Origin: Eledone cirrhosa
Lineage: Eukaryota
DNA length: 64,000 nucleotides
Reading direction: 5' to 3'
NCBI GenBank assembly: GCA_964016885.1
Contig: OZ024741.1
Coordinates: 311,984,001-312,048,000 of the forward strand
Within the stretch, counting starts at the first letter, position 1, and the number at the start of each line of letters is the position of its first letter. Made by a program: the position numbers and the translations under genes. Below, one piece after another: positions 24,877 to 59,142 of this stretch. The notes below the pieces were generated by a model. It had not been told where the DNA came from. It was given only the letters and a program-made list of their open reading frames with translations, and made no database searches.

Positions 24877-24889
24877 AATAAGGATTTGT

Positions 24890-25680
<791 letters not shown>

Positions 25681-25929: not shown

Positions 25930-26654
25930 TAGAATGATTAAAATGCAACCGGGTGTAAATAAAAAATAAACAACGATTGCATTGAGAAAATATATAAAAA
26001 AACATTTACGCAAATTTTGCCACGTGCAGACGTAGAGTTCCCGCCTTTGCCAATGTCTACAGGTGTTAGGGCTGCCATCTCCACCACCACAATGTCGAAG
26101 AGTACGTCGAATACCAGTGATACCACCAACACCACTACAACCACCACAGCAACTGAAATAAAAAGATTATATCGGGATAACAAAATGGATTCTCCCACTA
26201 GAATCTTCTACATCGAACAACCACCACCACAGCAGCAACTGAAACAAAAATAATAATAACAAAAATAACAATAACAGCAAAAGCAACAATAAGAATAACA
26301 ACAGCAACACCAACACCAGCGCTAAACCATATGTGTCTTTTGCTAATGTTTGCGATCAAGAACAAAACGATTGAGGTAAACCAGGAAGAACTGAATGGGG
26401 TCAGGCGAATGGTGAAGAAAAATGGCTACAGGCTGAGCCTCACACCCACATCAAATACCATGCAACATCACCGCCTATGTACTGTATCATTCCGCTCAAT
26501 GCCCCAATCTTTTTGAGTGTCCTTTTCAAATAACAATGTATGTGCACTTATATACAGTTAACAATAAAAGTTTTCCATAAATGGCAATTTAAATAACTGA
26601 AAATAACAAACCTTTGCGGAGCTCACGATAATACGATTTACTACGTAGGTCGCC
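25930..26654. mobile_element. Rearranged 5' end of a Tx1 family B element: 5'UTR on minus (26500-26654), ORF1 start inverted on plus (~25980-26500)
   Basis: 26500-26654 nearly equals 50026-50179; the plus strand encodes QEELNGVRRMVKKNGY..MQHHRLCTV, homologous to QEELDEAKGMVKKDGY..MEQRRLCTV on minus at ~49390-49520. Confidence 0.8.
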
Positions 26655-26687
<33 letters not shown>

Positions 26688-26689
<2 letters not shown>

Positions 26690-29600
26690 TTTCTTTATTG
26701 GTAACAAGGGCTGACATCAAGAAAAACATTACAGACGGCACAGGACGGCACAGGACGGTACGATGTGGGTTTTGTGCGTGTAAATAATTTTATTATTTAT
26801 ATAAGAAAAGAAAAAGAAAAAGAAAAAGACATAAAACATATATATATATATAAACAATAAAAATGAAAATTGAAACAATGAAAAATTCCCCAAAAAGGGG
26901 GAAACCTCCGAGGGTTACTCGTGGCGAAAACCACACAAAAGACCACGGCCACCCTGACTACCAGAGCAAGCGCCCTCTCTCAACTTTTCGATCTCTCAAA
27001 CTACAGGCGTATATTCAGAGCGGTCCCGTTCACTCGGACCATTCCCACTACATTCACCCACCTTTCAACAAACTTGCTAGAAGGCAGCACTTGCCTCTCT
27101 ACCCTGATTTTCCTCTTCAAGTGAAACTTTAAAAAGTTAAATGGGGATTCGCCGAAGAGGAAAGTGTCTGTCTTTAACCTTTTCAACCTTGTCCACCCCA
27201 CAATCTCTTTCGTCATGGCCACCAGGCAGATGAAAACCGCCTGCCCTTCCTCCTCGAAGGAAGACGGCGAGACCATCTGCACAATGGACTCAGTCGAGAA
27301 CCGGATCAGTCCTACACACGACAGCAACTTTTGGACATAGCTCCACAAGTCAGCAATGCTCGGGCACTAAACGAGTGCGTGCACGACGGTTTCGTCGCTC
27401 TGCGCGCATCTCGCACATGCTTGAAGAGCTTATCTCGAACCCGCAGTGCTCCCCGGTAGCACTGCCAGGCCAGGGATTTTGTGAAGTTATCCATAGGTCC
27501 TGGGCTGAAAGTTCTCTAGAAGAGAGCAAACAGCTGGTCTTCTTCGACGCCCAGGATCTCTACGAGAACGTCGTCGGTCTTCCCCTCCACTAGTCCTCTA
27601 TAGAACGCCGAGGTGGATGTTCTACAGATACTGATGCCCAGCTGGCAGAGGGCAGTGAGCGCCTGGAGATATTCCAGTTTTCAAGCGCTATCCCTCGGTC
27701 TTTTTCTGACCCAGGACTGCAGCTCCGTCAAGGAGACGAGCTGTGGGAAAACGTGCCTGGCTAACGGCGACCACACCTGTTCACCGTCAAGGAAGCACCA
27801 GAGATTTTGCAACCTCAGCGCGTGTTTGCGCATCTTCAGCCATGGCATGCCCAGACCTCCACGCAACGGGTGTTGACAGCAGATGGATCGTCTGACCAAA
27901 GGAGCCCGTCCCTCCCACAAAAAGCGGAAGAGGAGGCCCTCCATTTTGGTGAGAGTTGGGCCGGGGCAAGGGTCGACGGTGAGGCGGTAGCAGATGACGG
28001 ATACAATGTACGCATTCGCCACCTCCGCTCGGTCTTTCAGGGACAGATTCCTCTCGGCCCATTTCTGGGTGAGAGGGGCCACCTTGCTCGTCACCTCGTT
28101 CCAATTTTTCTCCATCTGGAGGTCCGGTCCGAACGAGACCCATGCAATTTAAACGGTCCGTTCATCCAACGCCCCACGACGCTGTCGGACGGCATGGACT
28201 TGCCTCTCCAGGTGCCGAGCTGCGAGCCCACCGACTTTTCCTGTTTTATCTTTGCTCCTGTCACCGCTTCGTATTCCTTGAGAGCGGTGCGAGCATCTGG
28301 ACGCGACTAGTGCTCGACACCACCAAGGTGAATTCGTCGGCGTCAGCCGACTCGGATTTCCCGCATTCTAGTTCGCGTGGGACGCCCCTCATCGCCCCCA
28401 GTTTGTGCAATAACGGCTCGAGGGCCAATACGTACAAGAGGGACGAGAGGATACAACACTGGCGGACTGAGCGCATGATGCTGAACGGCTGAAAACGGGC
28501 CCGAAACCGGCTGCATCGAGGACCGCCGCCAGGACCGATGGTCGACCCTATCGAATGCTTTCGATTGGTCCAAGTTGATCAGGGTCCCACCCGTGCCAGG
28601 TTTCTTAACCACCCTCTCTATGATGTATCGCATGAGGTGTAGGTTGTGTATGGATCTGTCCGTAATGGTGCATGTCTGCGCCTCTCCCACCAGACCCTTG
28701 ACGATAAGCGCCAACCTCGTTGCCAACACCTTGGCCAAAATCTTCAACTCTGCGTTTAGCAGGGTTATGGGCCTGAAATTATCGATAACATCCCCGTTGT
28801 TCGGGGCTTTTCTCAGCAGCGCCACCGCTCTCCGGCTCAAAAAACTGGGAATGCACCCGTTCTGTTGCCAGTTGCAGTAGACGTCTGCCCAGATGTCACA
28901 GAACAGGTCTGGCATAAATGCATAAAGCTCGTAGGGCAGACCATCCAAACCTTGCGAATTACCCCTCGTGCAGTTAGCCATCGCTTCCCATATTTCATCG
29001 GCTGTTATTGTCTTTTCGCAACACTGTGCTGCCGTCATCGAGAGCCGAGGCAGTCCGTCGAATTATGCACTGAAGTCCATGCCCCGATCCGGACCACCGC
29101 TGCTTCCGAACAGTTCAGCAAGGTGCTGCTGAAAATTTCACACATCTTCTCGGGTTCGAGCAATACGCACCCGTTTTGGTCAGACAAAGAGCGAATTGTG
29201 GCTTTGTTACTATGTCGCGCCTCTGCCACCTAGGCCCATTTGACGGCTTTTGTCCCCTCTTGTTTCAGAGCACGCGCTCTAGCTCTGAAAACGCAACCTT
29301 CGTGTTTTGCGTTGAAGAATTGGTCAAGTGCCAATCTCTCCGCAAGCACGTCGGTTATGATGCCTGTCCTAAACGCCTCTTCTAGCTTTCTGACTAGCTC
29401 TCCCTCTACTCTATTTTCCTCTATCACTACTCATTTGCTAAACCTAATCGACTCTACTTTAAATGCCCTTTTCAAGGCGAACCACCACCTGTTGTTGACG
29501 AACGCTCCCGTCAACGCCCGCTTAACTAATACGCTAATCTATTCGATACCTGTCTGACAGTTGAAAACGTCTGAGCAGGTTGGTGATGCTCTTGCACCCT

Positions 29601-31426
29601 CCTCCCCTATCCACTAGCCCAATACAATCCCAGCGTGCATTCAAGATACCGTTCCAGTCGCCCACTAACACTAAAGAGCGGGAGGTTCTCAAAAAGGTCT
29701 CTAGCCGTCTGAAGAAATCTGGCCGAACTGCCCCTGTTGAGGTGTAGACGGCTACTAGCCTGAAAGCATTGCCTTCTCTGCCGGTCTCGTCCAGCACCAC
29801 CGATGTACTTTCTGGGTCTAGGAAGATGGCCCGTATGGCGAGATCCAAGCCTTTCCGAAAAAGGACGGCAACCCCTCCCCCCGATCCTGGACGGCTGGGA
29901 GATGCGTACACATCGTAGCAGTCGAAAATCTGTGCGAAGGCTTGTGCTTCGGAGATTCTGGTTTCACTGATGGCCACCACATCTATGTTTAATCACCTGA
30001 GGTCGTTGAGAAGGTGACCCTGCTTCCAAGATGACCCCAGGCCACGTGCATTTATACTGCTTATTCTGAGTACAGCCATGTTAGATGATAAACGTGGCAA
30101 GTGAGAAAGGGTCACTTACCTTGATCGTGTGGTGAAGGGCCAGGAGAACCGTCCCTTTGGTTGGTCATGGGTGTTTCCAAGAGGATGTCAGTGTATATCC
30201 ACTTGGTAACCGACCCTCTGAAGTCTCCAACTGCGTTGGGGAATTTTTGTTTTAAAGTTTTGTACTGTTCTATTGAGATTTCAATGATGCTTATGTTTGT
30301 CGGGAGAGTTCTTGCTGTTGGTGGGGTGTAGTAGTTTTTTTTCTGTGATATCTGTGTGCTGCTTTATATATTGTATGAGTTCTTTTTTTGCCATTTTTAT
30401 GGCTGTGTACTTTTTGGGGGGAGGGGTGGTTTTGTTGCTGTTTGGTGTGTGTGTGTTTTGTTTTGTTTGTGTTGTTGGTGTTTTTGGTGATGCTGGTGGT
30501 GGTGTGGTTGTTGTTGGCGGTGGTGCTTGTGGTGGTGATGGTGATGGTGGTGGTGTTGTTGCAAGTTTCCTTGCTGCCTTTACCCCTGTTTGTGTGCCTT
30601 CGCTTTTGGAGGGTGAATCTAAGGGTTTATTTTCTTTTTTGTTTTTTGTGGCAGACCGTTTGACACTTCACTCCCGCCTCAAACTCCATGTCGGATTCCG
30701 TGGCGTCTGGGAGGGGTATGCGCTCCACGGCTGTTGGTGGTGGTAGTGGAACCCTCTTCGGCAATTTTGTTGCTGGTGTAGCTACTTCAAATGCAGCTAT
30801 TGGTGTTGCCGCCATGGATGTTGCTACTTTGGTTGTCCGTGGCCTTGGTACGGGTGCCACGGACGTTGCCCTCCTACTCACCGTGGAAGGGGCTTCTGCG
30901 TTTGTTGCCTTCCCTGCGACTTTACCGCTGTTATTTTTGTTGTTACTGTTGTTATTGATGGTGTTGTTGTTGGTGTTGTTGTTGGTATTATTGTTGGTGT
31001 TGTTGTTGGTGTTATTGTTGGTGTTGTTGTTGGTGTTATTGTTGGTGTTGTTTGTGTTAGAAATAGTTGGTAATTTTAAATCTGTAACAATCCTTTTTTC
31101 CTTTGTAATATGTTCGTTTATATTTACCTCCTCTGGAACGCTGTCTTGTTGACATGCTGATAAAGTCTCCCTCTCTCTGTGTTGTCTGACAGCGCTCTCT
31201 CTCTTTCTTGTGTTATCTATGTTGAAATTTTTTTCAAAAGATATTTTTACACACATACGACACCCCGTAAAGGGGTGCCGTATTATTTACGAGTGAACCC
31301 CTGTATTAGGTGGGTCTCTTCTTCTAAACTTTTATCAAATTAAAACTTGAATAAAATCTTTAGAACGGTTGAAAACGAGGTAAAACTTTGAAAAAAACTG
31401 GAAGCGATAAGAAGCGAGGCTTCACC
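26688..31426 (-). mobile_element. Tx1/L1-type LINE family A; both ends present, internal deletions, pseudogenised
   Basis: APE (VAISETR, LVAVY, LVGDWN), RT (NFRPITLLN, LDQSKAFDRVDH), C-terminal WQCYRGAL; AATAAA plus (ATT)n tail; (AAT)n on both flanks. Confidence 0.92.
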
Positions 31427-31450
31427 AACAATAATAATAATAATAATAAT

Positions 31451-31690
31451 TGTTTCTACTTTTGGCACAAGGCCAGTAATAAACCAGTACATTACTTGTA
31501 CTTTATTTTATCGACCCATTAAGGATGAAAGGCAAAGTGAACATCGGCGGGATTTGAACTCAGACCGTAAAGGGACGTAACTATGCTGGAAAATTGTTTT
31601 CTACAATAGGCACAAGGCCAGCAATTAATCCAGGGTATTACTGGTACTTCATTTTATCGACCCCTGTTAGGATGAAAAGCAAAGTTAAAT
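31451..31690 (-). mobile_element. Two tandem 5'-truncated SINE copies (~31451-31592 and ~31593-31690)
   Basis: Match to full copies; B box present in the first. Confidence 0.88.
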
Positions 31691-31832
31691 AGTAATAAAG
31701 AGCTGACATCAAGAAAAACATTACAGACGGCACAGGACGGTACAGGACAGTACGATGTGGGTTTTGTGCGTGTAAAGATGTTTATTATTTATATAAGAAA
31801 AGAAATAAAGACATAGAAATATATATATATAT

Positions 31833-32366
31833 AAACAAATAACGAAACGAAATTAAATTTCGTTTCGTTTGTAACTCACTTTTGTATGACTGACGCTTAA
31901 ACAATTAAGTTAAAAATGTACATCCACATATGTATACTGAAATACTAGTATGCATATGAATACACACACGTGTACATATGTAGATGTACCGAGTTTTTCA
32001 CTGGTCACTTTACTGTGAGTGTCCAGCTATTCTGTATGTAAACACACAGACAAACCGGTTTTTAGAGTCATACTGGTTTTTGAGGAAACACCTTTCCTCT
32101 ATTCTCCAGAAAGCCAGACAAGGAATATTGGACTAGTTTCGATGTTGTTACATCTCATCAGCAATATTTACCTATCTTCCGGCCTTTCTAGAGAATCGTG
32201 AAAGCACATATCGTTATATGCTTTTTCTATGAAAATTAGTAGTGGGCAGACCAATTTGCATAGAGCGTGAGTACGTACCGGTTCAACGGAGACGATAAAA
32301 ACAAATAACGAAACGAAATTAAATTTCGTTTCGTTTGTAACTCACTTTTGTATGACTGACGCTTAA
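31833..32366 (-). mobile_element. Retrozyme-like non-coding insert: one 466-bp unit plus 68-bp terminal redundancy
   Basis: 31833-31900 equals 32299-32366; carries a hammerhead; multiple hairpins; absent from the paralogous 3'UTR at ~26850-26945. Confidence 0.8.
32124..32168 (-). ncRNA. Type I hammerhead ribozyme (canonical core, minimal palindromic stem III)
   Basis: Minus strand AATATTG CTGATGA GATGT AACA ACATC GAAA C TA G TC|CAATATT: 7-bp stem I, CUGAUGA, 5-bp stem II closed by G-C, GAAA, GUC site; predicted cut between 32131 and 32130. Confidence 0.92.
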
Positions 32367-35300
32367 GACCACGGCCAACCTGACCACCAGGGCAAGGGCC
32401 CTCTCTCAATTTTTCCACTTCTCCAACTACAGGCGTATATTCAGAGCGGTCCCGTTCACTCGGAACATTCTCGCTACATTCACCCACATTTCAACAAACT
32501 TGCTAGAAGACAGCACTTGCCTCTCCACTCTGATTTTCCTCTTCAAGTGAAACTTGAAATAGTTAATTGGGGATTCGCCGAAGAGGAAAGGGTCTGTCTT
32601 TAACCCTTTCAAACTTGACCACCACAGAATCTCTTTCACCATGGCCACCAGGCAGATTGAAAACCGCCTGCTCTTCCTCCTCGAAGGAAGACAGCGAGAC
32701 CATCTGCACAATGGACTTAGTCGATAACCGGATCGGTCTTACACGCGACAGCAACTGTTCGACATAGCTCCACAAGTCAGCAATGCTCGGGTACTGAACG
32801 AGTGCGTGCACGACGGTTTCGCCGCTCTGCGAAATTGTTTCAGAGCACGTGCTCTAGCTCTGACAACGCAGCCTTCGTGTTTTGTGTTGATGAATTGGTC
32901 GAGTGCCAATCTCGACGCAAGCACGTCGGTTGCGATGCCTGTTCTAAACGCCTCTTCTGGCTTTCTGACTAGATCTCCCTCTATTCTATTTTCCTCTATC
33001 ACTACTCCTTTGCTAAACCAAATCGACTCTACTTTAAATGCCCTTTTCAGGGCAAACCACCACCTGTTGTTGACGACCGCTCCCGTCAACGCCCGCTTAA
33101 CTAATACGCTAATCCGGTCTCTGTAGGATTTGCGCGCCGGGAAAGACGCGTTCAGCTTCCAGTAACCGGGCCCTTGTCTATGAAGTCTGTCTATGTCGAT
33201 CTCACAGATCACAAATTTGTGGTCTGTGTAGTCGACTATTTTAAATTGTGGACAACTTATACTAGCCTTATCTAGTTTTCTGCAGAATACCCTATCGAGA
33301 TACGATCTGGATGACCCGATACGGTTTATCCATGTCCACATTGGCACATTCGGGTGATCCAGTCGATACCTGTCAGACAGTTGAAAACGTCTGAGCAGGT
33401 TGGTGATGCTCTTGCACCCTCCTCCCCTGTCCTCTAGCCCAACACAATCCCAGCGTGCATTCAAGATACCGTTCCAGTCGCCCACTAACACTAAAGAGCG
33501 GGAGGTTCTCAAAAAGGTCTCTAGACATCTGCAGAAATCTGGCCGTCCTGCCCCTGTTAGGATGTAGACGGCTACTAGCCTGAAAGCATTGCCTTCTCTG
33601 CCGGTCACGTCCAGCACCACCGATGTACTTTCTGGTTCCAGGAAGATGGTCCGTATGGCAAGACCCAAGCCTTTCCGAAACAACACAGCCACTCCGACCC
33701 CCGCTCTCGGACGGCTCGGAGATGCGTACACCTCGTAACCGTCGAAGATCGGTGCGAAAGCTTGCGTTTCGGAAATTCTCGTCTCGCTGATGGCCACCAC
33801 ATCTAGGTTTAGTGACCTGAGATCGTTAAGTTAGGTGGCCCTGCTTCCAAGATGACCCCAGGCCAGGTACATTTATATGAGCTGTTGTAAGTAAGGCCAT
33901 GTTCGGTGAGGAATGGAGTAAGTGAGAAAGGAACATCTACCCTCATCGTATGGGGAGGGGAAAGTTGAACCGTCCCTTTGTCTGGTGATGGGTGTCTCCA
34001 AGATGATGTCGGTATGTATCCTTTTGGTAACTGACCCTCTGAAGTCTCCAACTGCGTTGGGGAATTTTTCTTTTAAATTTTTTTAATGGTCTATTTTAAC
34101 TTCAATAAGGCTTATATATTTCTGGAGAATGTTTCGTGTTGGTGGGGTGTAGTAATTTTTGTTTGTGATGTCTGTGTTCTGCTTTATATGTTCTAAGAGT
34201 TCTTTTTTTGCCAAGATTATGGCTGTGTAATGTTTTTGGGGTGGTTTTGTTTTGCTGCTCTCTTCTTGTTGCTGCTGTTGGGTATGATTGTCTTGTGTTT
34301 GCGATGTTGATGTTTGCGGTGATGCTTGTGGTGGTGGGGTGGTGGTAGTTGGTCGTGATGGTGGTGGCGTTTCTGGGTCTCGCCTTGCAGCCTTTACCCC
34401 TCTTTGTTTGCCTTCGCTGAGGTGGATCTTTAACCCACAGAGATAACATTTTTGCCGTCTTCCTTCCACACTTATATGGAGTTGGAGTCCTTCCTCGTGG
34501 TCTATGATATCGGGGATAGCGATGATACACTTCTGGTCAGTTAGTATAAGCATTTGCATGCCTATACCTGACCAGTTCTCTCTCCCTATTTTCTCTACTG
34601 GCAGCTGGTCGGTCGTCCTATCCTCGCTTCCAGCAAGGACAGACGCGGCCAGCCAAGGTATGGGCACGTCGGATGGGACCTGGGTCACTTGACCCTCACA
34701 ATTTTCTGCCCGCAGTAGGAGGGCAACAAATCTTCTCCTCACTCTTTAGGGTTTCCAAAGAGTGAGATTTCGCGTCTTTGGGGGTAGCGAAATGTACGTC
34801 CACTGTGGCAAACTTTCTGCTCCGGCTGATGTGGGTTTTGTGCGCCCAGACGCACGTTCATGGCCTTTTGGATTTGAGCCTCCGTGGCTCTCTCCACCCG
34901 ATGTGACATTTTGCTTACGGTGCAGTAAGTCACCGTCCGTCGCTGCTGGTTCTTGAAAAACTCGGGTGGATGTTTCAGGGAGACTCTATTGGCGCTTCTT
35001 GTCACCATGGCCCTTGCGACTGCCATCTCCTCTTCTGTGACTAACACTGTCTCGATTATGTCGGGCGACACCTGCAAAAGAAGTGGTCCCTTTTTCAGCA
35101 GCACCACTATTGCTGCTGCTACTGGTCTTACTGGTGGTGCTGAGATCGCTGTTACAGTTATCGATGTCATTGTTGATGTTTAAGTTGGTACAGTTGTTGG
35201 TGTTGTTGTTATTGGTTTCGTTGATACTTTTGCTGTTGTTACTGTTATTGTGGCTGTTGTTATTATTGTTTGTTTTTGTTGATACTGTTCCTACTACTAT

Positions 35301-35844
35301 CGTTGTTGTGGCTGTTGTTATTGTCATTGCTATTGTCGTTCTCGACCTTACCGCTGTTATTTTTGTTGTTGCTGTTGTTAATGATGGTGTTGTTTGTTGG
35401 TGTTATTGTTGCTGTTGTTTGTGTAAGAAATATTTGGTAATTTTAAATCTGTAACAATAACATTAAAAATGATATTGTTCCTCTTTTCCTTCGTAATATT
35501 TTCCTTTATATTTACCTTCGCTAGAACGCTGTCTTGTTGATATGTTGACAAAGTTTCCCTCTCTCTGTGTTGTCTGACAGCACTCTCTCTCTCTTTCTTG
35601 TGTTATCCATGTTGAAAGAAATTTCTTTTTTCAAAATATATTTTTACATAATACGACACCCCGTAAAGGGGTGCCATATTATTTACGAGTGAACCCCTGT
35701 ATTACGTGGGTCACTACTTCTAAACTTTTATCAAGTTTAAAACTTGAATAAAAGGTAAAGAACAGTTGAAAACGAGGTAAACTTTGAAAAAAACGGAAGT
35801 CGATAAGAAACGTGGCTTCCTCTTCAATAATAATAATAATAATT

Positions 35845-36075
35845 TTTTCTGCCTTTGGAACAAGGCCAGCAATTACCAGTGCATTACTGGTACTTTATTT
35901 TATCGACCCCGTAAGGATGAACGACAAAGTTAACGGGATTTGAAATCAGAATAATAATAATAATAATAATTGTTTCTACTTTAGGCACAAGACCAGCAAT
36001 TAACCAGTGTATTACTGGTACTTTATTTTATCGACCCCGTAAGGATGAAAGGCAAAGTTAACCTCGCCGGGATTA
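35845..36075 (-). mobile_element. Two 5'-truncated SINE copies separated by (AAT)n
   Basis: ~35845-35950 and ~35971-36075 match the SINE 3' portion. Confidence 0.88.
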
Positions 36076-36106
36076 ACTTTGCATTTCAATAATAATAATA
36101 ATAATA

Positions 36107-39100: not shown

Positions 39101-39425
39101 GAAGTGGTTGAAACACCATATTTACAAGGAGGAGGCTAGACTACTGTGCAGGATCTGTGGAGAGAGAGAGGAGACTGTGGCTCACATTGTATCCGAGTGT
39201 AAACAGCTAGCCCAGACTCACTATAAGGGCTGGAGACATGATGTGATGGGCAGGGTGATCCACTGGCACCTACGCAAAGTAAACAATTTACCACATGCTG
39301 AGAAGTAGTATGAGCATAAGCCAGAGTCAGTGATAGAAAACGATCAGGTGAAGGTGCTGTGGGATTTTAGGATACAGACGGACAAGAAACTGGAACACAA
39401 TAGACCTGACCTGGTGGTTTTGGAC
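36107..39425 (+). mobile_element. R4/Dong-type RLE LINE family 1, copy 1 (breaks off inside the endonuclease)
   Basis: N-terminal W..CY..GYRK.M..W..EQKL.GQAR.I domain, RT, CRICG..ETVAHIVSEC knuckle, RHD, NRPDLVVLD, then (AAT)n. Confidence 0.93.
36820..38256 (+). pseudogene. Longest open segment (478 aa) of the Dong-type polyprotein, RT N-terminal half
   Basis: PWWKKRL, YRQNRMF, NYRPITCL, EQKGC, WIDYKKAFDMVPH, GIFQGDSLSPLLF; frameshifts into ORF 38284-39033 (MDDLKLF). Confidence 0.9.
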
Positions 39426-39466
<41 letters not shown>

Positions 39467-39486
39467 GAAGAAGAAGAAGAAGAAGA

Positions 39487-42343: not shown

Positions 42344-42360
42344 AATAATAATAACAATAA

Positions 42361-42534
42361 TTGTTTCTACTTTTGGCACAAGGCCAGCAATTACCCAGTG
42401 CATTACTGGTACTTTATTTTATCGACCCCGTAAGGATGAAAGGCAAAGTCAACCTCGGCGGGATTTGAACTCAGATCGTAAAGGGACGTAACTATGCTGG
42501 AAAGCATGGCGTCCGACCCTCTACCGATGCTGCC
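42361..42534 (-). mobile_element. Full-length tRNA-derived SINE inside (AAT)n
   Basis: GGCAGCATCGG A-box-like, GAGTTCAAATCC B box, (ATT)n tail; AAT repeats on both sides. Confidence 0.92.
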
Positions 42535-42554
42535 AATAATAATAATAATAATAA

Positions 42555-44276: not shown

Positions 44277-44277
<1 letters not shown>
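42555..44277 (+). mobile_element. 5'-truncated R4/Dong-type LINE family 2
   Basis: YMDDLKLF, MEFGLDKC, YKYLG, EGGRGL, CRVC..ETIDHIISMC, RHD, NRPDI, KLSKYKDL, PLVVGALG; flanked by (AAT)n. Confidence 0.93.
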
Positions 44278-44308
<31 letters not shown>

Positions 44309-44309
<1 letters not shown>

Positions 44310-47300: not shown

Positions 47301-50179
47301 TATGCTAGACCCATCTATTTCTCTACAAAATACTCTATCTAGATATGATCTGGATGACCCTATGCGATTTGTCCAAGTCCACATTGGCACATTCGGGAAA
47401 TCCAATCGGTACCTGTCAGACAGTTCAAAACACCTGAGCAGGTTGGTAAGGCTCTTGCACCCTCCTCCCCTATCCGCTAATCTCACACAGTTCCAGCGTG
47501 CATCTTAGATCCCGTTCCAGTCGCCCACTAACACTAAAGAGCGGGACGTTCCAAGAAAGGTCTCCAGACGCCGGAAGAAATCAGGCCGCCCTGCTCCTGT
47601 CGGGGCATAGACGGCCACTAGCCTGAACGCTTGCCCGTCTCCGCTGGTCACGTCTAACACAACCAAATTACCTTCTGGGTCCAGGAAGATGGCCCGTATG
47701 GCGAGATCCAAACCTCTCCGAAAAAGCACAGCAACTCTTCCCTCCGATCCCGGACGGCTGGGAGATGCGTACACATCGTAGTCGCCGAAGATCGGTGCGA
47801 AGGCCCGTGCTTCGGAGATTCTGGTCTCGCAGATGCCCACTACATCTATGTTTAGTGACCTGAGGTCGTTGAGCAGGTGGCCCTGCTTCCATGACGACCC
47901 CAAGCCACGCGCATTTATGCTGCCTATTCTGAGTGAGGTCATATTGAAATGGAGTGGAAAACATGGGAAAGACCACTTACCTTACTTCTCGTAGAGGAAG
48001 GACGGTTTTTCCATCCTTTTCACTTCTTGTGGCCTCCTCAGGAAGGATGTTCTTATAAATCCTCCTGGAGAGTGCTTGTCGGAAGTCTCCGATGTCTTTG
48101 GGGAATTTTTGTTTCAGTGTCATGTACGTTTTCTGTGTGATGCGAGTGATTTGTATGTGTGGAGGTGGTGTGAATTTTTGGGTTGTTGTGTAGTCTTTTT
48201 CTGTGATGCTGGTGTTGTGTTGGATGTAGTGTAATAATTGGTTGTTGTTCAAATTTAATGGTGTGTAGTGTGTATCGTTTTGGTTGTTTTGTTTTGTTTG
48301 CGTTTGTTGTGGGTTTGTTTCTGTTTCGCATTTTCGTGACTTTTGTGGTGTAGGTGATGGTGGTGTTGGGGTTAATGATGGTGATGGTGTTGGTGTTTGG
48401 GGTGATGGGGTTGGTGATGCTGGTGTGGATGGTGGTATATCTGTCCTAACTTTTTTGTTTGTTAATTTATTTGTTTCCCTCTGTATTTTGTTTTTGGAGA
48501 GGGAAGGAAGAGAATTTTTTCTTTTTTGGTTTCTTTTTTTTCTTTTTTCCTGATACTGTTTCCCACTCCTCGTCGTCACAATCTGTCTCCAGTTGTGATA
48601 GGCCGGGGAGTGGAAAATCCTCCACAGGTGTTAGTTTTGGTTGTCGCGTGGTGGATGGTGTAGGCGCTGGTGCTAGTTCTGAAGCGTTGGGTGGTGGTGG
48701 TGTTGGTTTTGCTGGTGGTGATGGTGTTGGTTTCGCTACTGTTGCTGGGGTTGTTGCTGTTATAGTTGCTTCTGTTGTTGCTGCTACAGTTGTTGCTGCC
48801 ATCTCTGCTACTGGTGGTGTTGATAATTGAGTCACTGGGGTGGGTAGGAGAGGTGGCCTCAACCTTTTAGCCTGAAGGCAGAAAGCCTTTAGGTGGGTTC
48901 CTTCACCACAAACGACACACCTAGGCCTTCTGCCCTCGACAATTACGGTGAGGTGGCTACCGTCAGTGAGGTCTATTACCTCTGGGATCTCCTCAATGCT
49001 TTTTTGGTCCGCTTGGATCAGGAGCTCCATCCCAGATCCGGACCAGTTCTCCTACATTTCTTTTGCTATTGCTATTATCTTTGTGTTGGCTTCGATGCCG
49101 GCGAGGACGGCCGCTATTTGCCAGGGAATTTCGATGGCCGGTGGAACGTGGGTCACCCTGATCTTTACCAGTCTCTGGCCACAATAGCTTGGGACGAGTG
49201 TTAAGTCGTCACTTCTTAATGGGGCCATGGAGTGTTCTTTAGCCTCCTCTGGTGTTTCAAAGAACACGTCCACGGTTCCATACTTCTGCCCACGTCTGAT
49301 GTGGGTTTTTCTTGCCCACACATGTCGCTTTTTGGATTTGGGACTCAGATGCCCGTTCCACTCGGCGCGATTTTATGTTTATTGTCCGATAAGTCACGGT
49401 GCATAGGCGACGTTGCTCCATTTTATTAGGTGACGGGGGGGGGGGGGGGGGGGCTGACCATGTACCCATCTTTCTTTACCATTCCTTTGGCTTCGTCTAA
49501 TTCTTCCTGAGTTACCTGAATCGCTTCGCACGTTTTTGCTACTCTGGCAAAACTCAGGGTAGTTTTCTTAATTTTGTTGCTGTTGTTGTTATCGTTATTT
49601 TTGCTATTGTTAATTTTAGTTTCAGTTGTGGTGGTGGTGGTGTCAGTGGTGTTCGGTATGGAATAGTTCATTTTGGTTGAATTCATTTCGATATCATGAG
49701 TTAATTTATATTTTTTTTCTTTTGTTTCTGTTGTCGCTGTGGTGGTGGTGGGGGTGGTGGTTGTCGCGGTGGTGGTGGTGGTGGTGGCGGCTTTAACACC
49801 TGCAGTCATTAGGTAATGGCGGGAAATGAACGTCTGCCTGAGACAAATTTATAATATTGCTACTGCTTACAATTCCAGTGTTGGCAAACGTAGCAATGTT
49901 TACAATGGTGGTGACGGTGTGAGGTGTTGGATTGTGAGGAAGGAGTGAATCTGAGTCATCCATTATTTTTCAAAGAAAAAAATTATTGTTTGATAATTAT
50001 AAAATGTTTAAATTTTGGGCTCAAGGCCCCAATATTTTGAGTGTCCTTTTCAGAAATCAATGTATGTGCACTTATATATAGTTAACAATAAACATTTTCC
50101 ATAAATGGCAATTTTAAATAACTGAAAATAACAAACCTTTGCGGAGCTCACGATGATACGATTTACTACGTAGGTCGCC
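44309..50179 (-). mobile_element. Full-length Tx1/L1-type LINE family B (ORF1 with CCHC knuckle, ORF2 APE-RT), frameshifted
   Basis: ORF1 CVVCGEGTHLKAFC; ORF2 from ATG 47942 (IGSINARGL), YADD, CPRC..ETVLH.L.QC; AATAAA tail; (AAT)n on both flanks. Confidence 0.94.
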
Positions 50180-50215
<36 letters not shown>

Positions 50216-50217
<2 letters not shown>

Positions 50218-53200
50218 TTTCATTTATTGAAACAAGAGCCGACATATAGGGGCAATCCAAAATACTGGGACAGTGGGGTTTTACAGAAAAATCGAGTAAA
50301 CAATATGAATAAACAAAGTAACAATAACAAAGTAACAATAAAGTAACAAGAAAATTACAAGAAAAAATTCCCCAATAGGGGGGATGCCCACCTAGGGTTC
50401 GCTCAGGTACCCCACCAGTCCTGAACGACCCGACACTTCGAGAGCAGTCTGGAAGGGCACCCCTCTCCTCTTCAAATTTACCTACCTACAGCCGCATGAC
50501 CAGAGTAGGCCCACTCACACGGGTCATTCTCGCCACATTCACCCACCTTTCAGCTAATGTACTGGGGGGAAGCACTTCTCTCTCCACCCTCACCTTCCTT
50601 TCCAAGTAAAACTTGAAAAAGTTGATGAGGGATTGGCCGAAGAGAAAAGTGTCTGTCTTCAGTCCTTTCAAGCTCGTCCACCATACAACCTCTTTCGCTA
50701 CTGCCACCAGACAGAGGAAAATTGCCTGCCCTTCCTGGCCAAAAGGCGGCGGGTCGATCTTCACTATGGACTCGGCCGATAGCCGGATCCGTTCTACACG
50801 CGACAACAGCTGTTCAACATAACTCCACAAGTCAGTAATGCACTGAACGGTTTCGTCGCTCTGCGCGCATCTTGGGCAGATCCGTCTGACAGCACTTCCG
50901 TGCCTCTAGAGTTTATCTCGAACCGGCAGTGCCCACCGGTAGCACTGTCAAGCGAGGGATTTTTGGAAATTATCCATCGTCCCCGGCTCGAAATTCCTCC
51001 GGTACAGACTGGTTAGTTCGACTTCGTTGACTCCCAGAGCCTCTCCCAGTGCGACGTCGCACTTGCCCACCACTAATCCTCTATAGAACTCGAGAGTGGA
51101 AGTTCCACTGACCGCATTGCCCGCCTGGTAGAGGGCAGTGAGTGCCTGGCAACATTCCAGATGCCAGTCACCCAGTCTCGGTCTCTTCTTGACCCAGGAC
51201 TGCAACTCAGTCAAAGAAAAAAGCTGCTGAAAGGCCCGTCTGACAAACGGCGACTACACCTGTTCACCGTTTAGGCAGAATATCAGGAGATGCCGCAGCC
51301 TCAGCGCGTGCCTGCGCCTTATTAGCCACGGCATGCCCAGCCCTCCACATAGAGTGTGCTGGCAGCAGATGGACCACCTCACCAGCAGAACCTGACCTCG
51401 CCACAAGAATTTGAAGAGGAGCCTCTCCAAGATGGCGAGGCGCGAACGGGGGCAAGGGACGACAGTCAGACGGTAGTAGTTGACGGACGCGATGTACGCG
51501 TTCGCCACTTCCGCCCGACATTTCAGTGATAGCTTCCTCCCAGCCCATTTCTGGGTGAGACTGACTACCGTGCCCGTCACCTCGTCCCAATTCTTATCTA
51601 CCTGGACGTCTGGCCTGAACCAAACCCCTAGCAACTTTACCGGTCCGTCCGTCCAGCGCCTAACGACGCTGTTGGACGGCATGGACTTGCCTCTCCAGGT
51701 GCCGAGTTGCAAGCCTACTGACTTTTCCGGGTTAAGTTTTGCTCCCGTCAACCTTCCATATTCCTCCAATAAGTTGCCAACCACCTTGATTTCTGAGGTG
51801 TCCGACACCACCACGGTGATGTCGTCCGCATAAGCCGACACAGCCTTTCCACGTCCCGATTCGAACGGGATGCCCTGCAACAGCTCCAGCTTCCGCAGTA
51901 AAGGCTCGAGAGTCAATACGTACAGAAGGGAGGAGAGAGGGCACCCTTGACGGACCGATCGGGAGACCTGAAACGGTTCCGAGAGGTGGCCATTAATTTT
52001 GACCATGTATTGCAGCGATTCAGCTTCTGAAGACGGGGCCGAAGCCAGCCGCCTTCAGGACAGCCTTCAGGTACCGATGGTCGACCCTATCGAATGCTTT
52101 CGATTGATCTAAATTGATCAGAGCCCCACCGAAGCCAGGTTTACACCCTACCCTCTCTATGATGTATCGCATTAGGTGGAGGTTGTCGTGTATGGACCTG
52201 GTTGGGATTGCGCAAGTGTGCGCCTCCCCAACCAAATGCCCGACGACAAGCGCCAACCTCTTCGCTAACACCCTGGCCAAAATCTTAAACTCTGTGTTGA
52301 GCAGAGTTATGGGCCTAAAATTGTCTAATGTGTCCCTCTTGTTCTCGTCTTTCCTTATAAGCGTCACTACGCCCCGGCTCACAGACCTGGGAATACTCCC
52401 GTTTTGCTGCCAGTTGCAGTAGAGGACTTCGAGGAGATTGGAGAACAAGTCTGGCATATTTACGTAAAGCTCGTAGGGCAGACCATCTAAACAGGGTGAC
52501 TTACGCCTCATGCAGCCTACAAGGGCATCCTGAATCTCGGCTGAAGTAATTGGCCTTTCGCAGCGCCCAGCGTAAGCCGTCGAGAGTTGCGGCAAGCCAT
52601 CGAGGTAGGGACTGAAGTCCGCCACCATCTCTGACCCGCCGCTTCCCCCGAACAACCGAGCAAAATGTTGGCGAAAGGTTTCACACATCCTCTTGGAATC
52701 GCTCAGCTCGTGCCCGTCTCGGTCCGTCAAAGACCGAATCGTGGTTTTATTACCACGCTGCGCCTCTGCCACGCGGGCCCATCGAACAGCTTTGGTTTCC
52801 TCGTTTCTCAGAGCACGCGCATTAGCTCTGACAATGCAACTTTCGTGTTTCGCATTGAAGAAATGGTCTCATGCCATTCTCGCCGCTAGCACATCAGTTG
52901 CAATGCCACTACCAATAGCCTCGTCTAACTTATCTACCAACTCCCCCTCCTTTCTATTTTTCTCTAATGCTACTTCTTTGCTAAACTCTATCGACATTAC
53001 TCTAATCTCTCTTTTGAGAGCACCCCACCATCTATTGCTGACGACTCCCCCTGTCAACGTTTTCTTAACTAAATTGTTGACCTGGTCCCTCTAAGCCTTA
53101 CGTGCCGGAAATGACATGTTTAGCTTCCAGTAACCAGGACCTAACCTACGCGTCTTATCTAGCTCGACCATACAGATCACACACTTGTGATCTGAATAGG

Positions 53201-56008
53201 CGACCGTTTCAAAACGTGGACAGCCCACACTATTTCTGTCTATTTTCCTAATGAATATCCTGTCTATATACGATCTAGATAACACTATGCGGTTAGCCCA
53301 GGTCCACACTGGCGCATTAGGTAAATCTAGTCGGTACCTGTCAGACAGTTGGAACTGGCTGATCAGGTTCTTGAGGCTTTTGCACCCCCCGCTCCTATCG
53401 GATACTCCCACACAGTCCCAGCGTGCGTCTAAGATGCCGTTCCAGTCCCCCGCTAACAGTAAAGAGCGAGACGTACCCAGAAAGGCTTCCAGACGTCTAA
53501 AGAAGTCCGGCCGTCCTGCCCCAGTAGGAGCATAGACGGCCACCAGTCTAAAGGCACCACCTTCATTATTGTTCACGTCCAGGACCACCAACTTCCCGTC
53601 CGGGACCGGAAGATCGACCTTACCCAGAGATCCAGGCCTTTCCTAAACAGCACTGCCACCCCGCCTCTCATTCCCGGCCGGCTAACAGATACAAAGATCT
53701 GATAGTCGTCTAAAATGGGGGCTAGTGCGCGCGTGTCGGAAATCCTGGTCTCGCTGACTGCAATTACATCCATTTCTATAGACATGAGGTCGTTGAGCAG
53801 GTGACCCTGCTTCCAGGATGATCCCAGGCCTCGAGCATTTATACATCCTACTCTTAATACGGCCATGTTGGCAGGTTAAACAGAGAGAGAGGAAGGTTTA
53901 CTTACCTTCCGGGCTCTTGTGAAGGTCGGGTTGTTCGACCTCCATAGTTAGTGGGTTTTCTTTTGGGAACCCCTTTAAAAGTCTTGAAGTTGGTTTTACG
54001 TTTGGGGTTCCCACGTCCCGAGGAAACCTGTCTCGTATTTCTTTGAATATGTCAAGCGACATTCGCACCAGAACCAAACCTTCCGGAACGCGAAATGTGC
54101 TCGATTTTAAAATCTCCCCCTCTTTTTGTATATTTTGACTTCGTGCTACGAGGGCAATCAGTTCCTTGTTGGCCCTCCTGACGAGCACGAAGTTTTGTAT
54201 GTTTTGTTGGTGTGATTTTATTTGTTTGCGTGGCTGTGGTGGTGATGGTTTTAGTGGTGTTGTTTCGGTTGTATCTGTGTTTGTTGTGAGTGCGGTGTCT
54301 GTGGTTTCAGATGTTTGTGTGTATATTTGTTCTTGCGTCTGTTTCGGTTGTTTGCGTTTGGGGGATTCTGTTGATGGTGATGGTGGTGTTGATGTTGGTG
54401 TTATTGGAGAGATGTTTGCGTGGGTGGTATCTGCGTTTTTTATTGTGGGTGCTTTTGTGCTTTGTTGAGTTTTTTTTTTCTTTTTGTATTTTGGGCGATT
54501 TTGGATTTCCATCATTTTCACTACTGGTAGATGAGGGGTCTGTGTCTGTAAGTGTGTCTGTATGTATGTTTAAGGTTTTATTGGCGTGTGTATTTTTGGG
54601 GGGAGGGTGAATTTGACAGCTTTCCTCGTTTCCCCCCTTGGTGGTCAATGTTGGTGGTGGTCTTTCTATTGGTGTTGTTGTTGGTGGTTTTGGTCCTCGC
54701 CCCGGCGTCGGCAGCAGTGGAGCCTTTCGGCCCCTTGCTTCTTTCCGCAGTTGAGGGCAGAAGGCTCGCAAATGGGTTTTTTCCCCACAAATAAAACACT
54801 GCGGCCTTTTGCCTTCGGTCATAATGTGAATGACAGTTCCATTCTGAAGGCGGATGTGGTCTGGGATTGTCTTCACATTCTCGGGCCTGATCTGGAGAAG
54901 GATCTCCAGGTCAACCCCGGACCAGTCCTCTCTGGCCGTTCTGGTCACTTCAATAGGGACTGTATCCGTCCCCTCCACAATCACACATCCCAGAAGCCAC
55001 CACATGTCAAGTCCTGGTAGGATTCTGGGAATGCGGAGACGGGCCGTTCTTTTTCCCATGTGGGAGGGGCACATTATGACCTTGCTGGTTTTGCAAGGAG
55101 TCATAGCGTGTTTCTTATTGAGGGCTTCTGACTTGAACAACACCGAAATGGTGCCGTACTGTCTGCCCCTCTCTATGTACTGGGTGTCTTCTCTGATGCA
55201 CCTCAGCGCGACTTCGACATCTTCTTGTGGGATTAGCGCAACCCTTTTGGTTTGTGCTGAGATGCATCTATAATGCACCGTTTTGCGCTCCACTGCCTCA
55301 GTAGCTTCTACCGGGACAGTTAAGTTGGCCCAAGTTTGCTCTTGCTTGATGAGGTTCCATGCCTGGGCCAACTTTTCATCTTTGTTTGAGAGGTCCATGT
55401 TGAAGCATGGCTTCTTTTTTGCTGCTGCCGCAGCGAAAGTGGTCTTGTTTTCGTTGGGGGTGTTGTTGACGTTGTTCTTATTGGTGTTGTTGTTAGCACT
55501 GTCGCTGTTATCATTGTTGTCTTTGTTGCCACCGTTGTTCTCGGTGCAGTTGGTATTGTTGGTGTTGGTGTTGTCGCTATTTGTTTTCATGTTAATCGTA
55601 TTTGTTATTTTTTTTATTTATCTGTAATTTCGTTGTCGCAGTTACTGTCATTTTTTTTCAAAATTAGAGTTTTTATTGGTATCATTGGTGTCTTTGTTTA
55701 CCTTGTTTGTGGTGGTGTTTGTGTTATCAATGAGTGTTAATTTCGCTGTAGCGCTCCTCTCAACTTCTACGCCGTTGTCGCACGACAGCCGACATATCGC
55801 TGTTTTTTTTTCTTCGTAAATTTTTTAACATGTAAAAAAAATGTTCAAATATTTGGGCCAAAAGGTCCAAATATTATACTTTCCCCTTCACGGGGCAAAG
55901 TCTAAGGGCATATATCCCTTACACAACAAGAACTATTTAACAACAAATAATTTAAACAGGCAAATAAAGCGACTTACTGTGAGTGAGCAAAAGACGTCCG
56001 CTTAGACC
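50216..56008 (-). mobile_element. Full-length Tx1/L1-type LINE family C, few disablements
   Basis: ORF1 55590-53898 with one frameshift; ORF2 from ATG 53866 (VGCINARGL) to 50486 in six open segments; (AAT)n on both flanks. Confidence 0.94.
54307..55590 (-). pseudogene. Tx1 ORF1 gag-like nucleic-acid-binding protein (427-aa open segment)
   Basis: Asn-rich N-terminus, TFAAAA motif, C-X2-C-X4-H-X4-C knuckle CFICGEKTHLRAFC; true C-terminus probably in ORF 53898-54521. Confidence 0.85.
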
Positions 56009-56044
<36 letters not shown>

Positions 56045-58959
56045 TGAACAATGATAGTGGGAAACCTATGAACCTAAGATTTGTAGACAGGAAAAAGTTA
56101 AAAGAAACAACAGATAAGGTAAACAAAGTCATCCCATACCTTGAGGCGAGGAGCCTTCACCAGTGCAACAATATCCTCAAAGCAACTTCAAATTCGGTGA
56201 GGAAATTACTTGGCATAAAAGCGAGAGGAAACAACAAACAAGAAAGATCAGAACCTTGGTGGAAGAAACGACTGAATGGCCAAATCAGGGAAATGAGAAA
56301 TGACATTGGAAAGCTTGAGTCCCTAGTGAATGGGACACTAAAAAGATAGACACTAAAAATAGACTGGAAATAAAGTACAAAACTAGGAGGAAAAAGCTAA
56401 ATATTATAATAGAGGAACTGAAGCAACGCATTGTAGCAAAGAGTGCAAAAATTAGGCGATACGAGAGCAGAGTCAGTCAGTATAGACAGAACCGCATGTT
56501 TGACAACAACCAGAAGATGCTGTTTGGACAGCTTGAAGGGAAAGAAAGAGGCAACGACTTGATCCGTGAGGCGGAACAAACTAAAACCTTCTGGAGAGGA
56601 ATATGGGAGCAGGATGTTAAACATAATGACCAGGCAGTGTGTATTGAGACAGTACAAAAGGAGATTAGTGAACAGGCACACAAACAAACTGATTTGAGTA
56701 TCACAGTTGAAACTCTTAAGGGGCAGGCCAAAAAACTAACCAACTGGAAATCACCAGGTCCAGATGGTGTGCAGGGGTATTGGATTAAAAATATAACATC
56801 CCTCCACCCGAAACTGACAACCATGTTCAATGACTTCTTAGTGTCAGGTGAGGTACCAGAGTGGTTGACAAAAAGTACCACAGTTCTGGTAATGAAAGAC
56901 CGAATCAAGGGTAACGATGTTACCAACTATAGACCTATCACATGTCTGTCTGTAATGTGGAAACTGTTGACAAGAATTATGTCTGAGGAAATCTACCATC
57001 ACCTCCACACAAACAACTTGTTACCGGATGAACAGAAAGGATGCCGAAAGAAGTCCCGTGGTACAAAGGACCAGTTACTTATTGATAAGATGGTAATTAG
57101 GAAGTGCAAGAGGAGACACACTGGTCTTGCCATGGGATGGATAGACTATAAAAAGGCAATTGACATGGTGCCTCATTCTTGGATCACCAAAAGCCTAGAG
57201 ATCTTCAAGGTGGCAGATAACATCAGACAGTTGTTGGGCAAAAGTATGAAGTCCTGGAAAACAGAGTTAACATCAGCTGGAGAATCATTGGGAGGCGTGA
57301 AGATCAAGAGAGGTATCTTTCAGGGAGATAGTCTGTCCCCTCTGTTGTTTGTCCTTGCCCTGATGCCACTGACCATTATACTGCCAAAGGTGAGAACAGG
57401 ATACACGTTGTGAAAGGGAGAGCTTACCATCAATCACCTCCTCTTCGTGGACGATCTTAAGCTCCTCGGGAAGAGTTAGAAGGAGTTGGATGTGCTTGTT
57501 GACACTGTCCGTATTTTCAGCAATGATATATGTATGCAATTTGGTATTAGTAAGTGTGGAGTCCTTGTGATGAAGAGGGGTAAATTGAGCAGAAGCAACT
57601 GAATCCAGGTACCAATAGGTGAGATGATAAAGGAAATTGACACTGAAGAAGGATACACGTATTTGGGTGTTCTGGACGCTGATGACATCAAGAACAAAAC
57701 AATGAAGGAATTGAAAAGATCTGAGTACATTCGGAGAATAAGGAGCGTATTAAAGTCACATCTGAACAGTAGGAATGCCATAAGTGCAGTAAATTCCCGA
57801 GCTGTGTCTATTATTAGGTAGAGTGCGGGAATTCTGAGAAGGAATGTTGCTGAACAAAAAGAAATGGATAGGAAGATTAGGAAGCTATTGACTATCTACA
57901 ACATGTTCCACAAGAGGAGTGATGTCGATAGACTCTACTTAAGGAGATCTGAAGGTGGAAGAGGTCTTATCAGCACAGAGGACTGTGTTCAGATGGAGAA
58001 AAACAACCTACACAAATACGTGACTGATAGTAAGGAGCCAATGCTCACAATTGTACTGAAGGAGATGACAATAGACCAGGGGATGTCCAAGGAGGAAATA
58101 ACAACGAGGAGAAAGAGCAGCCTTCATGAAAAATCCCTCATATTACCTTCTTTGAGAAAACTGAATTCAGAGATCCACAGACATGGAACTGGTTGAAAAG
58201 AGGTGACCTTAAAAAGGCTACAGAAAGAATACTAATGGCTGCGCAAGAGCATGCTCTCAAAACGAAGTGGTTGAAACACCATATTTACAAGGAGGAGGCT
58301 AGCCTACTGTGCAGGATCTGTGGAGAGAGGGAGGAGACTGTGGTTCACATTGTATCCGAGTGTAAACACCTAACCCAAACTCACTATAAGGGCTGGAGAC
58401 ATGATGTGATGGGCAGGGTGATCCACTGGCACCAATGCAAAGTAAACAATTTACCACATTCTGAGAAGTGGTATGAGCATAAGCCAGAGTCGGTGATAGA
58501 AAACGATCAGGTGAAGGTGCTGTGGCATTTTAGGATACAGACAGAGAAGAAACTGGAACACAATAGACCTGACCTGGTGGTTTTGGACAAGAAAAAAAGA
58601 TCGTGCCTGATTGTGGATGCGACCTGCCCATTCGACACGAAAGTGCAAGAGAAGGAGAGGGAGAAAATTAACCGATACCAGGACTTAAAGTGGGAGTTAA
58701 AAAGGATTTGGAACTGCCATGAAGTCAAAGTGGTCCCGATAGTCATAGGCGCACTAGGTACTATCTCAAGGAATTTCCAGGGATGGTTAAAGAAAATTGG
58801 TCCCGCCACGCTTTTTGGAACGCTTCAAAAGGCATGCTTGCTGGGAACAGCAAGAACCCTCCGATACGTCCTGAATATCTGAGGCTGCAGGTAGTGGCTT
58901 GATATTCATTTCAACAAACTTCCCAGTTAATTAACATCAATGACTGAGACTCAAAGAAC
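56045..58959 (+). mobile_element. R4/Dong-type LINE family 1, copy 3 (5'-truncated, complete 3' end)
   Basis: Highly similar to ~36880-39425; RT in ORF 56496-57413 and full RLE domain in ORF 58193-58882; flanked by (AAT)n. Confidence 0.94.
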
Positions 58960-58962
58960 AAC

Positions 58963-58998
<36 letters not shown>

Positions 58999-59000
<2 letters not shown>

Positions 59001-59142
59001 TTTCTTTATTGGCCACAAGGGAAGACATCAAGAAAAACATTACAGACGGCACAGGAAGGTACAGGACGGTACGATGTGGGTTTTGTGCGTGTAAAGATTT
59101 TTATTATTTATATAAGAAAAAAAAAAAAAAAAGACAGAAACA
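58999..59142 (-). mobile_element. 3' tail of a Tx1 family A-like element
   Basis: Matches ~26688-26840 and ~31700-31820. Confidence 0.9.

Follow-up and report, generated by a model that had tools for sequence, protein, structure and literature searches.

How did fifteen pieces of retroelement, belonging to three kinds, come to lie almost end to end, with AAT tracts of one reading direction between them and with each kind confined to one strand? The question is raised by a chain at 26494-59142 of a stretch of 64,000 nucleotides from Eledone cirrhosa (assembly GCA_964016885.1, contig OZ024741.1, positions 311,984,001 to 312,048,000 of the forward strand), here called the window, in which position 1 is the first letter. 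The chain is composed of two kinds of long interspersed nuclear elements (LINEs), named Tx1-like and R4/Dong-like (Dong-like in short), and of a short interspersed nuclear element (SINE) with a tRNA-like head. The chain is probably a pile-up, in (AAT)n, of target-preferring retrotransposons of the type without long terminal repeats (non-LTR).

A description made from the letters of this DNA (the sequence-only reading) had placed AAT tracts of the same direction at nearly every junction, all Tx1 elements and SINEs on the minus strand and four Dong-type elements on the plus strand. When the pieces were resolved by self-comparison, Pfam and tblastn maps, this polarity was borne out without exception: the minus strand holds six Tx1-like pieces from three families (A, B and C), including a 5' stub at 26494-26654, together with all five SINEs of the chain, and the plus strand holds all four Dong-like LINEs, from two families (D and E). 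If orientations were independent, such a pattern would arise by chance about once in 8000 cases (2^-13, an arithmetic figure). Each of the 12 tracts that had been listed exists and reads AAT on the plus strand, and clean plus-strand (AAT)n occupies 12 of the 14 junctions between the 15 pieces. When the window was scanned for six AAT units in a row, overlaps being counted, 47 matches were obtained; every one was on the plus strand and within 26655-58998, the interrupted tract at 42344 falling below this pattern; the mean in 100 dinucleotide shuffles was 0.00. The tracts in the chain measure 18-41 bp, and those of at least three units outside it are balanced (3 AAT versus 3 ATT). From left to right, the chain reads as follows.

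26494-26654, minus strand: Tx1-like family B 5' stub of 161 bp, the left chain end, 93% identical to 50019-50179 and with the same terminal base
26655-26687, plus strand: (AAT)11 separating the B 5' stub from the 3' end of A
26688-31426, minus strand: Tx1-like family A with both ends present, two internal deletions and a broken ORF2 (RVT_1, Exo_endo_phos; tblastn and self-BLAST)
31427-31450, plus strand: AAC(AAT)7
31451-31688, minus strand: two 5'-truncated SINEs (31451-31592 and 31593-31688) joined without a tract, followed by a decayed tract at 31689-31697
31698-35825, minus strand: A', a second family-A copy, with its reverse transcriptase deleted and a 0.5-kb insert
35826-36105: (AAT)6, SINE 35844-35949, (AAT)7, SINE 35971-36087 and (AAT)6, both SINEs on the minus strand
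36106-39425, plus strand: Dong-like D1, its open reading frame (ORF) starting at 36295, broken inside the nuclease motif and lacking the last 370 bp
39426-39487, plus strand: compound tract (AAT)13(AAG)7
39488-40184, no strand assigned: about 700 bp without an informative match in the window
40185-42343, plus strand: Dong-like D2 with a 1.5-kb internal deletion and an intact 3' end, 89-96% identical to D1 and D3
42344-42554: interrupted AAT tract, near-full SINE 42362-42534 (minus strand), then (AAT)6
42555-44277, plus strand: Dong-like E, of the second family, 5'-truncated, with the nuclease motif present
44278-44308, plus strand: (AAT)10 with a 3' end on each side
44309-50179, minus strand: Tx1-like family B, full length, with broken ORF1 and ORF2
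50180-50215, plus strand: (AAT)12
50216-56008, minus strand: Tx1-like family C, full length; ORF1 with CCHC knuckle; ORF2 with nuclease, reverse transcriptase and zinc region, carrying stops and frameshifts
56009-56044, plus strand: (AAT)12 with a 5' end on each side
56045-58959, plus strand: Dong-like D3, 5'-truncated, with reverse transcriptase, CCHC and PD..D nuclease; best solved-structure matches are R2 proteins
58960-58998, plus strand: AAC(AAT)12 with a 3' end on each side
58999-59142, minus strand: family A 3' stub cut at a TA run, the right chain end

The layout agrees in the main with the statement that almost no unique DNA separates the elements, since 30,895 of the 32,488 bases at 26655-59142 are element DNA; excepted are the 0.7 kb after D1, which are unassigned, and the 0.5-kb foreign insert of A'. 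The right boundary at 59142 also stands, and the left lies 161 bp further out than had been proposed. Both chain ends are cut elements (the 161-bp 5' stub on the left, a 144-bp 3' stub at a TA run on the right), so that the original flanks of a founding microsatellite are not visible; every LINE copy in the chain has stops, frameshifts or deletions. The segment 39488-40184 may be a longer 5' untranslated region (UTR) of D2, whose start is spanned by an imperfect inverted repeat, or the old right flank of the compound microsatellite, and if 39426-40184 is such a flank the chain may represent two runs. We infer that one ancestral microsatellite founded the whole chain, that the chain is contiguous, and that the specificity would hold genome-wide.

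The two LINE classes carry different nucleases, as had been supposed from the letters. ORF2 of the minus-strand LINEs has an apurinic endonuclease-like (APE) domain and a reverse transcriptase (RT), matched by Pfam Exo_endo_phos and RVT_1, with zf-RVT found in an intact relative (P0241), and a Tx1-like profile (A1) matched L1 ORF2p at E 6.6e-114 versus 1e-35 for R2. The ORF1 of family C shows a C-x2-C-x4-H-x4-C motif and aligns at E 1e-15 with the ORF1 of another relative (L019), in which zf-CCHC scores above cutoff; a separate ORF1 with a CCHC zinc knuckle is a feature of the Tx1 clade. Families A, B and C are 72-78% alike in DNA; among named proteins, those closest to them come from Argonauta hians (64 and 74% identity) and a cuttlefish, in line with an octopod-like host. 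In an RT tree built without named Tx1 or L1 references, and with rows of fewer than 150 aligned residues left out, the three chain families, two window copies from outside the chain and P0241 form a 96/94 clade next to the Argonauta protein. The plus-strand LINEs have a single ORF with RT, then CCHC, then a PD..D/ExK restriction-like endonuclease (RLE), the motifs being read in D3 and E. Among solved structures the best matches were to R2 proteins, both for the D-family C-terminus (E 0.0035-0.0056) and for the RT profile; no APE match was obtained in full-length relatives. Families D and E are about 40% alike in amino acids (E versus D3 35-49% in longer blocks). The names Tx1 and R4/Dong are thus putative assignments from architecture and target, made without named reference sequences. 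Matches to a Kelch design were rejected as a short repeat match.

Whether the tracts were targets or were supplied by the elements as tails is decided in large part by junctions at which two 5' ends meet. All three of these (36088, 42535 and 56009, of 6, 6 and 12 units) carry a tract which the neighbours cannot have supplied as a tail, and this favours the view, taken in the sequence-only reading, of the tracts as target. In the chain, a single locus, the intact Tx1-like ends all adjoin AAT or a decayed tract, and the full-length 5' termini of two B copies meet the tract at the same base; sense AAT tracts are present at all three intact Dong-like 3' ends and at three of the four 5' ends. Copies located outside the chain serve as controls.

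9009-10737, plus strand: 5'-truncated Tx1-like copy, sister of family C, with the duplication TATCTTAC at 9001 and 10738
14933-18724, minus strand: two old R4/Dong-like copies head to tail, with element-sense (AAT)3 at the junction 16356-16364
23625-24881, minus strand: three SINE copies with AATAA at each 5' end and the duplications TCAATAAT (24451/24639) and AATAAG (24695/24877)

The Tx1-like control is bounded by an exact duplication of 8 bp, lacks an ATT tail, and shows TTATTAT where it inserted. A further Tx1-like copy, a sister of family B on the minus strand at 62272-64000, is missing the final 110 bases, and nothing can therefore be learned from its flank. In four of the five SINEs outside the chain, AATAA occurs at most two bases from the 5' end, against a background frequency of 0.3% per base; at 24877, the motif's initial three bases also belong to the SINE's own sequence. 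Three of the five have 6-8 bp duplications containing AATAA, and all terminate in 0-2 units. The old Dong-like pair has the same polarity relative to AAT as the chain, on the opposite strand.

Dong-like relatives in other assemblies point in the same direction. An alignment search gave eight loci, six of them 53-58% identical, and the other two (L011 and L012, 26-33% in amino acids) were excluded from the flank count. In two of the six (L006 and L010), a truncated coding start is directly adjoined by 23 and 21 sense units, one (L005) has 31 sense units about 0.8 kb before the first match, and in one (L008) three 3' ends are each followed by sense AAT. In the genome record behind L008 (G001), sense AAT comes next at 20 of 30 Dong-like 3' ends and antisense at 2 of 30, the 30 being those fetched among 40 matches (10 had no locus), with one row being the query itself. 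One run in that record reads (AAT)17, truncated Dong copy, (AAT)15(AAG)16 and resembles the window at 39426; at L102, two truncated Dong copies are flanked on both sides by sense AAT. Contigs C16, C52 and C61 of G001 and the loci L005-L010 are animal-like and rich in Dong-like and Tx1-like LINEs, in bacterial genome records, and are host contamination. At L005, a SINE-like head was read by eye at 131-330, directly after (TAA)31 and before the Dong-relative ORF. A compound (AAT)n(AAG)n tract also occurs at window 6270-6297 and, at a Dong 3' end, at L102 14425-14517. A ribozyme resembling that of hepatitis delta virus (HDV) at the Dong-like 5' end gave 0 matches in four regions with a descriptor of our own, run without a positive control and on copies whose true 5' end may be missing; Rfam returned nothing relevant to it.

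The alternative that survives best, though we think it unlikely, is that the tracts are the elements' own 3' tails and that later elements inserted into or beside these tails by RNA-DNA pairing at any nick, no nuclease specificity being involved. Eight of the 12 clean tracts do touch a 3' end, 3' repeats have been proposed to guide site choice in RTE-related retroposons (in the available part of PMC6007223), and tracts in G001 are commoner at 3' ends than at alignment starts, where an upstream sense tract was seen in only 8 of 38 (one of them also with an antisense run), many of these starts being BLAST breaks. A tail origin is, however, excluded for the three tracts that separate two 5' ends and for one beside a broken copy, and outside the chain neither the Tx1-like copy nor the SINEs, with their 0-2 units, carry one of any length. 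A mixed form, in which tail pairing aids priming at a site chosen by the nuclease, is compatible with target-preferring insertion.

The polarity of the SINE may be explained through its 3' end. A copy of 185 bp shows motifs resembling box A and box B, recognised by visual inspection, and a head whose fold has a z-score of -2.9; ARAGORN and Rfam found no tRNA gene in it, and Rfam gave five weak matches in 35700-42700, far below gathering score. The terminal 25-30 bases of the SINE can be aligned to the 3' ends of the Tx1-like elements, ranking in the top 0.2-2% of random window 30-mers in five of five comparisons, and its likeness to Dong-like ends is at background level in two of two. The common core is a CTTGT (in RNA, CUUGU) loop on a short stem, a hairpin of about 25 nt. 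The inner three of its five pairs are kept in 14-15 of 16 distinct rows, including G-C to C-G and G-C to A-U swaps, and the outer two are weak; none of 500 shuffles reached the 70% paired of the real rows and slid controls gave 25-44%, measures that are inflated by the structure having been drawn from the same related sequences. When six 3' ends were folded as whole tails, none had a significant z-score, and the hairpin thus rests on pair conservation, not on stability. Tx1-like relatives that are 43-44% alike in amino acids also have an 11-mer of the SINE at their 3' end. A scan with the SINE core pattern had no match in metagenome or genome contigs; one with the Tx1 3'-end pattern had four matches, none resembling the window, and no Tx1-like relatives were found in viral contigs.

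Judged on these sequence features, Tx1-like ORF2 is likely the mobiliser of the SINE, and the polarity of the SINEs and that of the Tx1-like elements would then be one fact, a probable dependence that the sequence-only reading missed. The SINE presumably resembles octopus SINEs. No Tx1 partner for an octopus SINE is named in the available parts of PMC4824008, PMC4758252, PMC3747384 and PMC6007223. Two further features of the SINEs were observed. A 175-bp repeat follows two different SINEs (23719-23893 and 24877-25051) and recurs inverted at 25484-25569 beside a long TA run, which may be explained by a hot spot for SINEs lying within another repeat or by duplication on the spot. The 5' end at 36075-36087 is a fold-back copy of about 13 bp of the SINE's own sequence, which suggests self-priming during insertion.

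These observations can be assembled into a mechanism. The orientation as observed has Dong-like elements sense to AAT, and Tx1-like elements and SINEs sense to ATT. In target-primed reverse transcription (TPRT), the nicked strand primes cDNA synthesis; therefore the AAT strand must be nicked for a minus-strand element to enter plus-strand AAT, and the ATT strand for a plus-strand element. From TPRT it would follow that the first nick is made in the ATT strand by RLE and in the AAT strand by APE. Insertions of Tx1-like elements and SINEs would duplicate 6-8 bp of target and leave no long tail, as seen in the copies outside the chain. Such a duplication would leave two to three units on each side, slippage would restore their length, and AAT would remain on both sides of each insertion in a tract. 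Each insertion would thereby turn one tract into two, so that the locus would gain targets. If the SINE is copied by Tx1-like ORF2, as the shared 3' end and the CUUGU-loop hairpin suggest, its polarity is explained as well. Later deletions and unrelated insertions would have cut both chain ends and broken D1, and a host function would not be needed.

Several points weigh against this reading. Two of the 14 junctions lack a clean tract (none at 31592/31593, a decayed one at 31689-31697), and D2 has no AAT at its recognisable 5' end, so that "nearly every junction" holds to the extent of 12 of 14. The left end adjoins an opposite-strand Tx1-like ORF1 piece (26013-26493). Inside a perfect repeat, a target duplication is unreadable. 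All 10 SINE copies in the window (3911-42534) are on the minus strand, the five outside the chain included, and a regional strand bias may add to the polarity pattern. The polarity deserves the word "strict" that had been applied to the chain, and the target is relaxed, since short AATAA-like motifs were used outside it. Copies A and C pair poorly at the hairpin, for which the inflated pairing measures must also be remembered. Among Dong-like relatives, L009 has no tract at its 3' end (L007 being uninformative), and the upstream count in G001 is low. Finally, the Tx1-like relatives at 43-44% amino acid identity, in G001 and a second record (G002), lie in head-to-tail arrays with no ATT between units, and the use of ATT is thus particular to the window's Tx1-like lineage. 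In G002 (L013-L058, a bacterial genome record), many contigs are arrays of intact Tx1-like elements, apparently host DNA; ORF2 has 1158 amino acids, the period is about 6.4 kb, several subfamilies each lie beside their own kind, and the joins have no microsatellite.

An assembly artefact, by which dispersed elements were joined through flanking AAT tracts, is very improbable. The joins are simple repeats and a gap of 200 N lies in the window 5 kb left of the chain; yet the chain itself is gapless, its tracts of 18-41 bp are far below read length, a clean tract is missing from two of the joins, and at several there is microhomology or a fold-back, as in real insertions. In a search of sequencing runs, the best held half (a share of 0.50) of the sampled words, a figure given no weight here as evidence. 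Dong-AAT-Dong runs likewise exist in an unrelated assembly (L102) and at window 16356, and an artefact would still require specificity of the flanks. Just as improbable are expansion of a smaller unit by tandem or segmental duplication and a polarity due to selection where the region is transcribed. An A 5' end followed by tract, SINE and SINE does occur twice and all 10 SINEs share one strand, but A and A' differ to an uneven degree (80-96% identity, depending on the segment), the four SINEs stop at different points and do not pair up as nearest relatives, the neighbours of repeated ends differ, and Dong-like copies and one Tx1-like copy outside the chain lie on the other strand. Independent insertion of the chain copies, which are 72-96% alike and differ in truncation points and neighbours, is supported.

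Each ingredient of target-preferring insertion at this locus has a published precedent, and what is found is known target-site biology in a new combination; the comparisons that follow reflect the consulted portions of the papers cited. The closest precedent, which the sequence-only reading missed, is that of SART and TRAS of Bombyx mori, two LINE families that share one telomeric repeat, (TTAGG)n, in opposite orientation and form arrays (PMC10088271). Both of these are R1-clade and telomeric, whereas the chain combines L1-group APE and RLE elements in an (AAT)n microsatellite, with a SINE as third user. A telomeric array of this type was considered for the chain itself and rejected, the elements being L1-group and RLE, the repeat AAT, and non-chain DNA being present on both sides within the window; the chain operates like such arrays without belonging to them. 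Dong elements (Dong of B. mori, DongAg and DongBg) target the TAA microsatellite (PMC3812793); Dong is a member of the R4 lineage with an HDV-like ribozyme at its 5' end, and in the primer used for the Dong 5' junction, TAA repeats in sense direction lie upstream (PMC3774820). The plus-strand LINEs share with them the TAA target and a single ORF with RT, CCHC and RLE, and differ in that two Dong-like families share the tract with Tx1-like elements.

Simple-repeat targeters of the Tx1 clade comprise Kibi, (TC)n, Koshi, (TTC)n, and crocodilian (TTCC)n/(TTTC)n families, preference being defined by more than 20% of flanks of one type (PMC4494074). The Tx1-like elements of the chain likewise combine APE with a simple repeat, here (ATT)n relaxed to AATAA-like motifs. 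Keno (APE, Tx1) and Utopia (RLE) share a site in the U2 snRNA gene (PMC4640811), which is likewise a convergence of APE and RLE lineages on one target; theirs is a gene target with identical 3' flanks, and thus the same orientation, in contrast to the microsatellite and opposite orientation of the chain. SINEU shares its target preference with Tx1-Mar, with tandem occurrence around the duplication (PMC4494074), and stringent SINE/LINE pairs are marked by shared tails in which the loop is conserved and the stem varies (PMC3747384). The chain SINE has target sharing with Tx1 in common with SINEU, and in addition a tRNA-like head and the shared 3' hairpin of about 25 nt; this SINE-Tx1 CUUGU hairpin is new here. 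No ATT-targeting Tx1 family and no such chain were found in the literature searched, Repbase lying outside its scope and possibly holding such families.

In Octopus vulgaris, Dong-R4, L1-Tx1 and SINEs have been active recently (PMC13282606, PMC8967140, PMC10294476), SINEs make up 11.6% of the assembly, and local retroelement hotspots occur, for which the portion of PMC13282606 consulted states no mechanism. We tentatively propose, at somewhat less than even credence, that (AAT)n forms genome-wide self-renewing internal landing pads in this host lineage, whose nearest named homologues are octopod. R4/Dong RLE elements would enter them on one strand, and on the other a Tx1 lineage, so far undescribed, that targets ATT; the latter would mobilise a major tRNA-derived SINE by way of the CUUGU-loop hairpin, conserved across elements only 43-44% alike in amino acids. 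If true, a partner LINE would be named for an octopod SINE expansion, and many polar chains would be predicted. The chain itself offers a simple sequence-level cause for local pile-ups such as the octopus hotspots (PMC13282606, in the portion consulted). It adds (ATT)n to the target repertoire of Tx1, presents APE and RLE as a natural nuclease pair on opposite strands of one trinucleotide repeat, and puts forward a pairing of SINE and LINE that is open to test and depends on a very small RNA signal. No host function is implied by the chain. The parts most worth following are the SINE-Tx1 hairpin and the ATT target.

The right end of the chain is cut by a sequence from 59143 onward, whose start presumably resembles a non-autonomous Helitron; no hairpin-CTRR 3' end was found in the 950 bases that follow 59143. 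A piece further to the right (60102-61330), which we take to be Penelope-like and for which Pfam gave no match, contains a 130-bp inverted repeat (60102-60231 versus 60535-60664). Family-A copies are broken at the same 3' UTR TA run at 31829-32366 and at 59142, and the 0.5-kb insert of A' at this run (31829-32366) is bounded by 72-bp direct repeats containing a palindrome.

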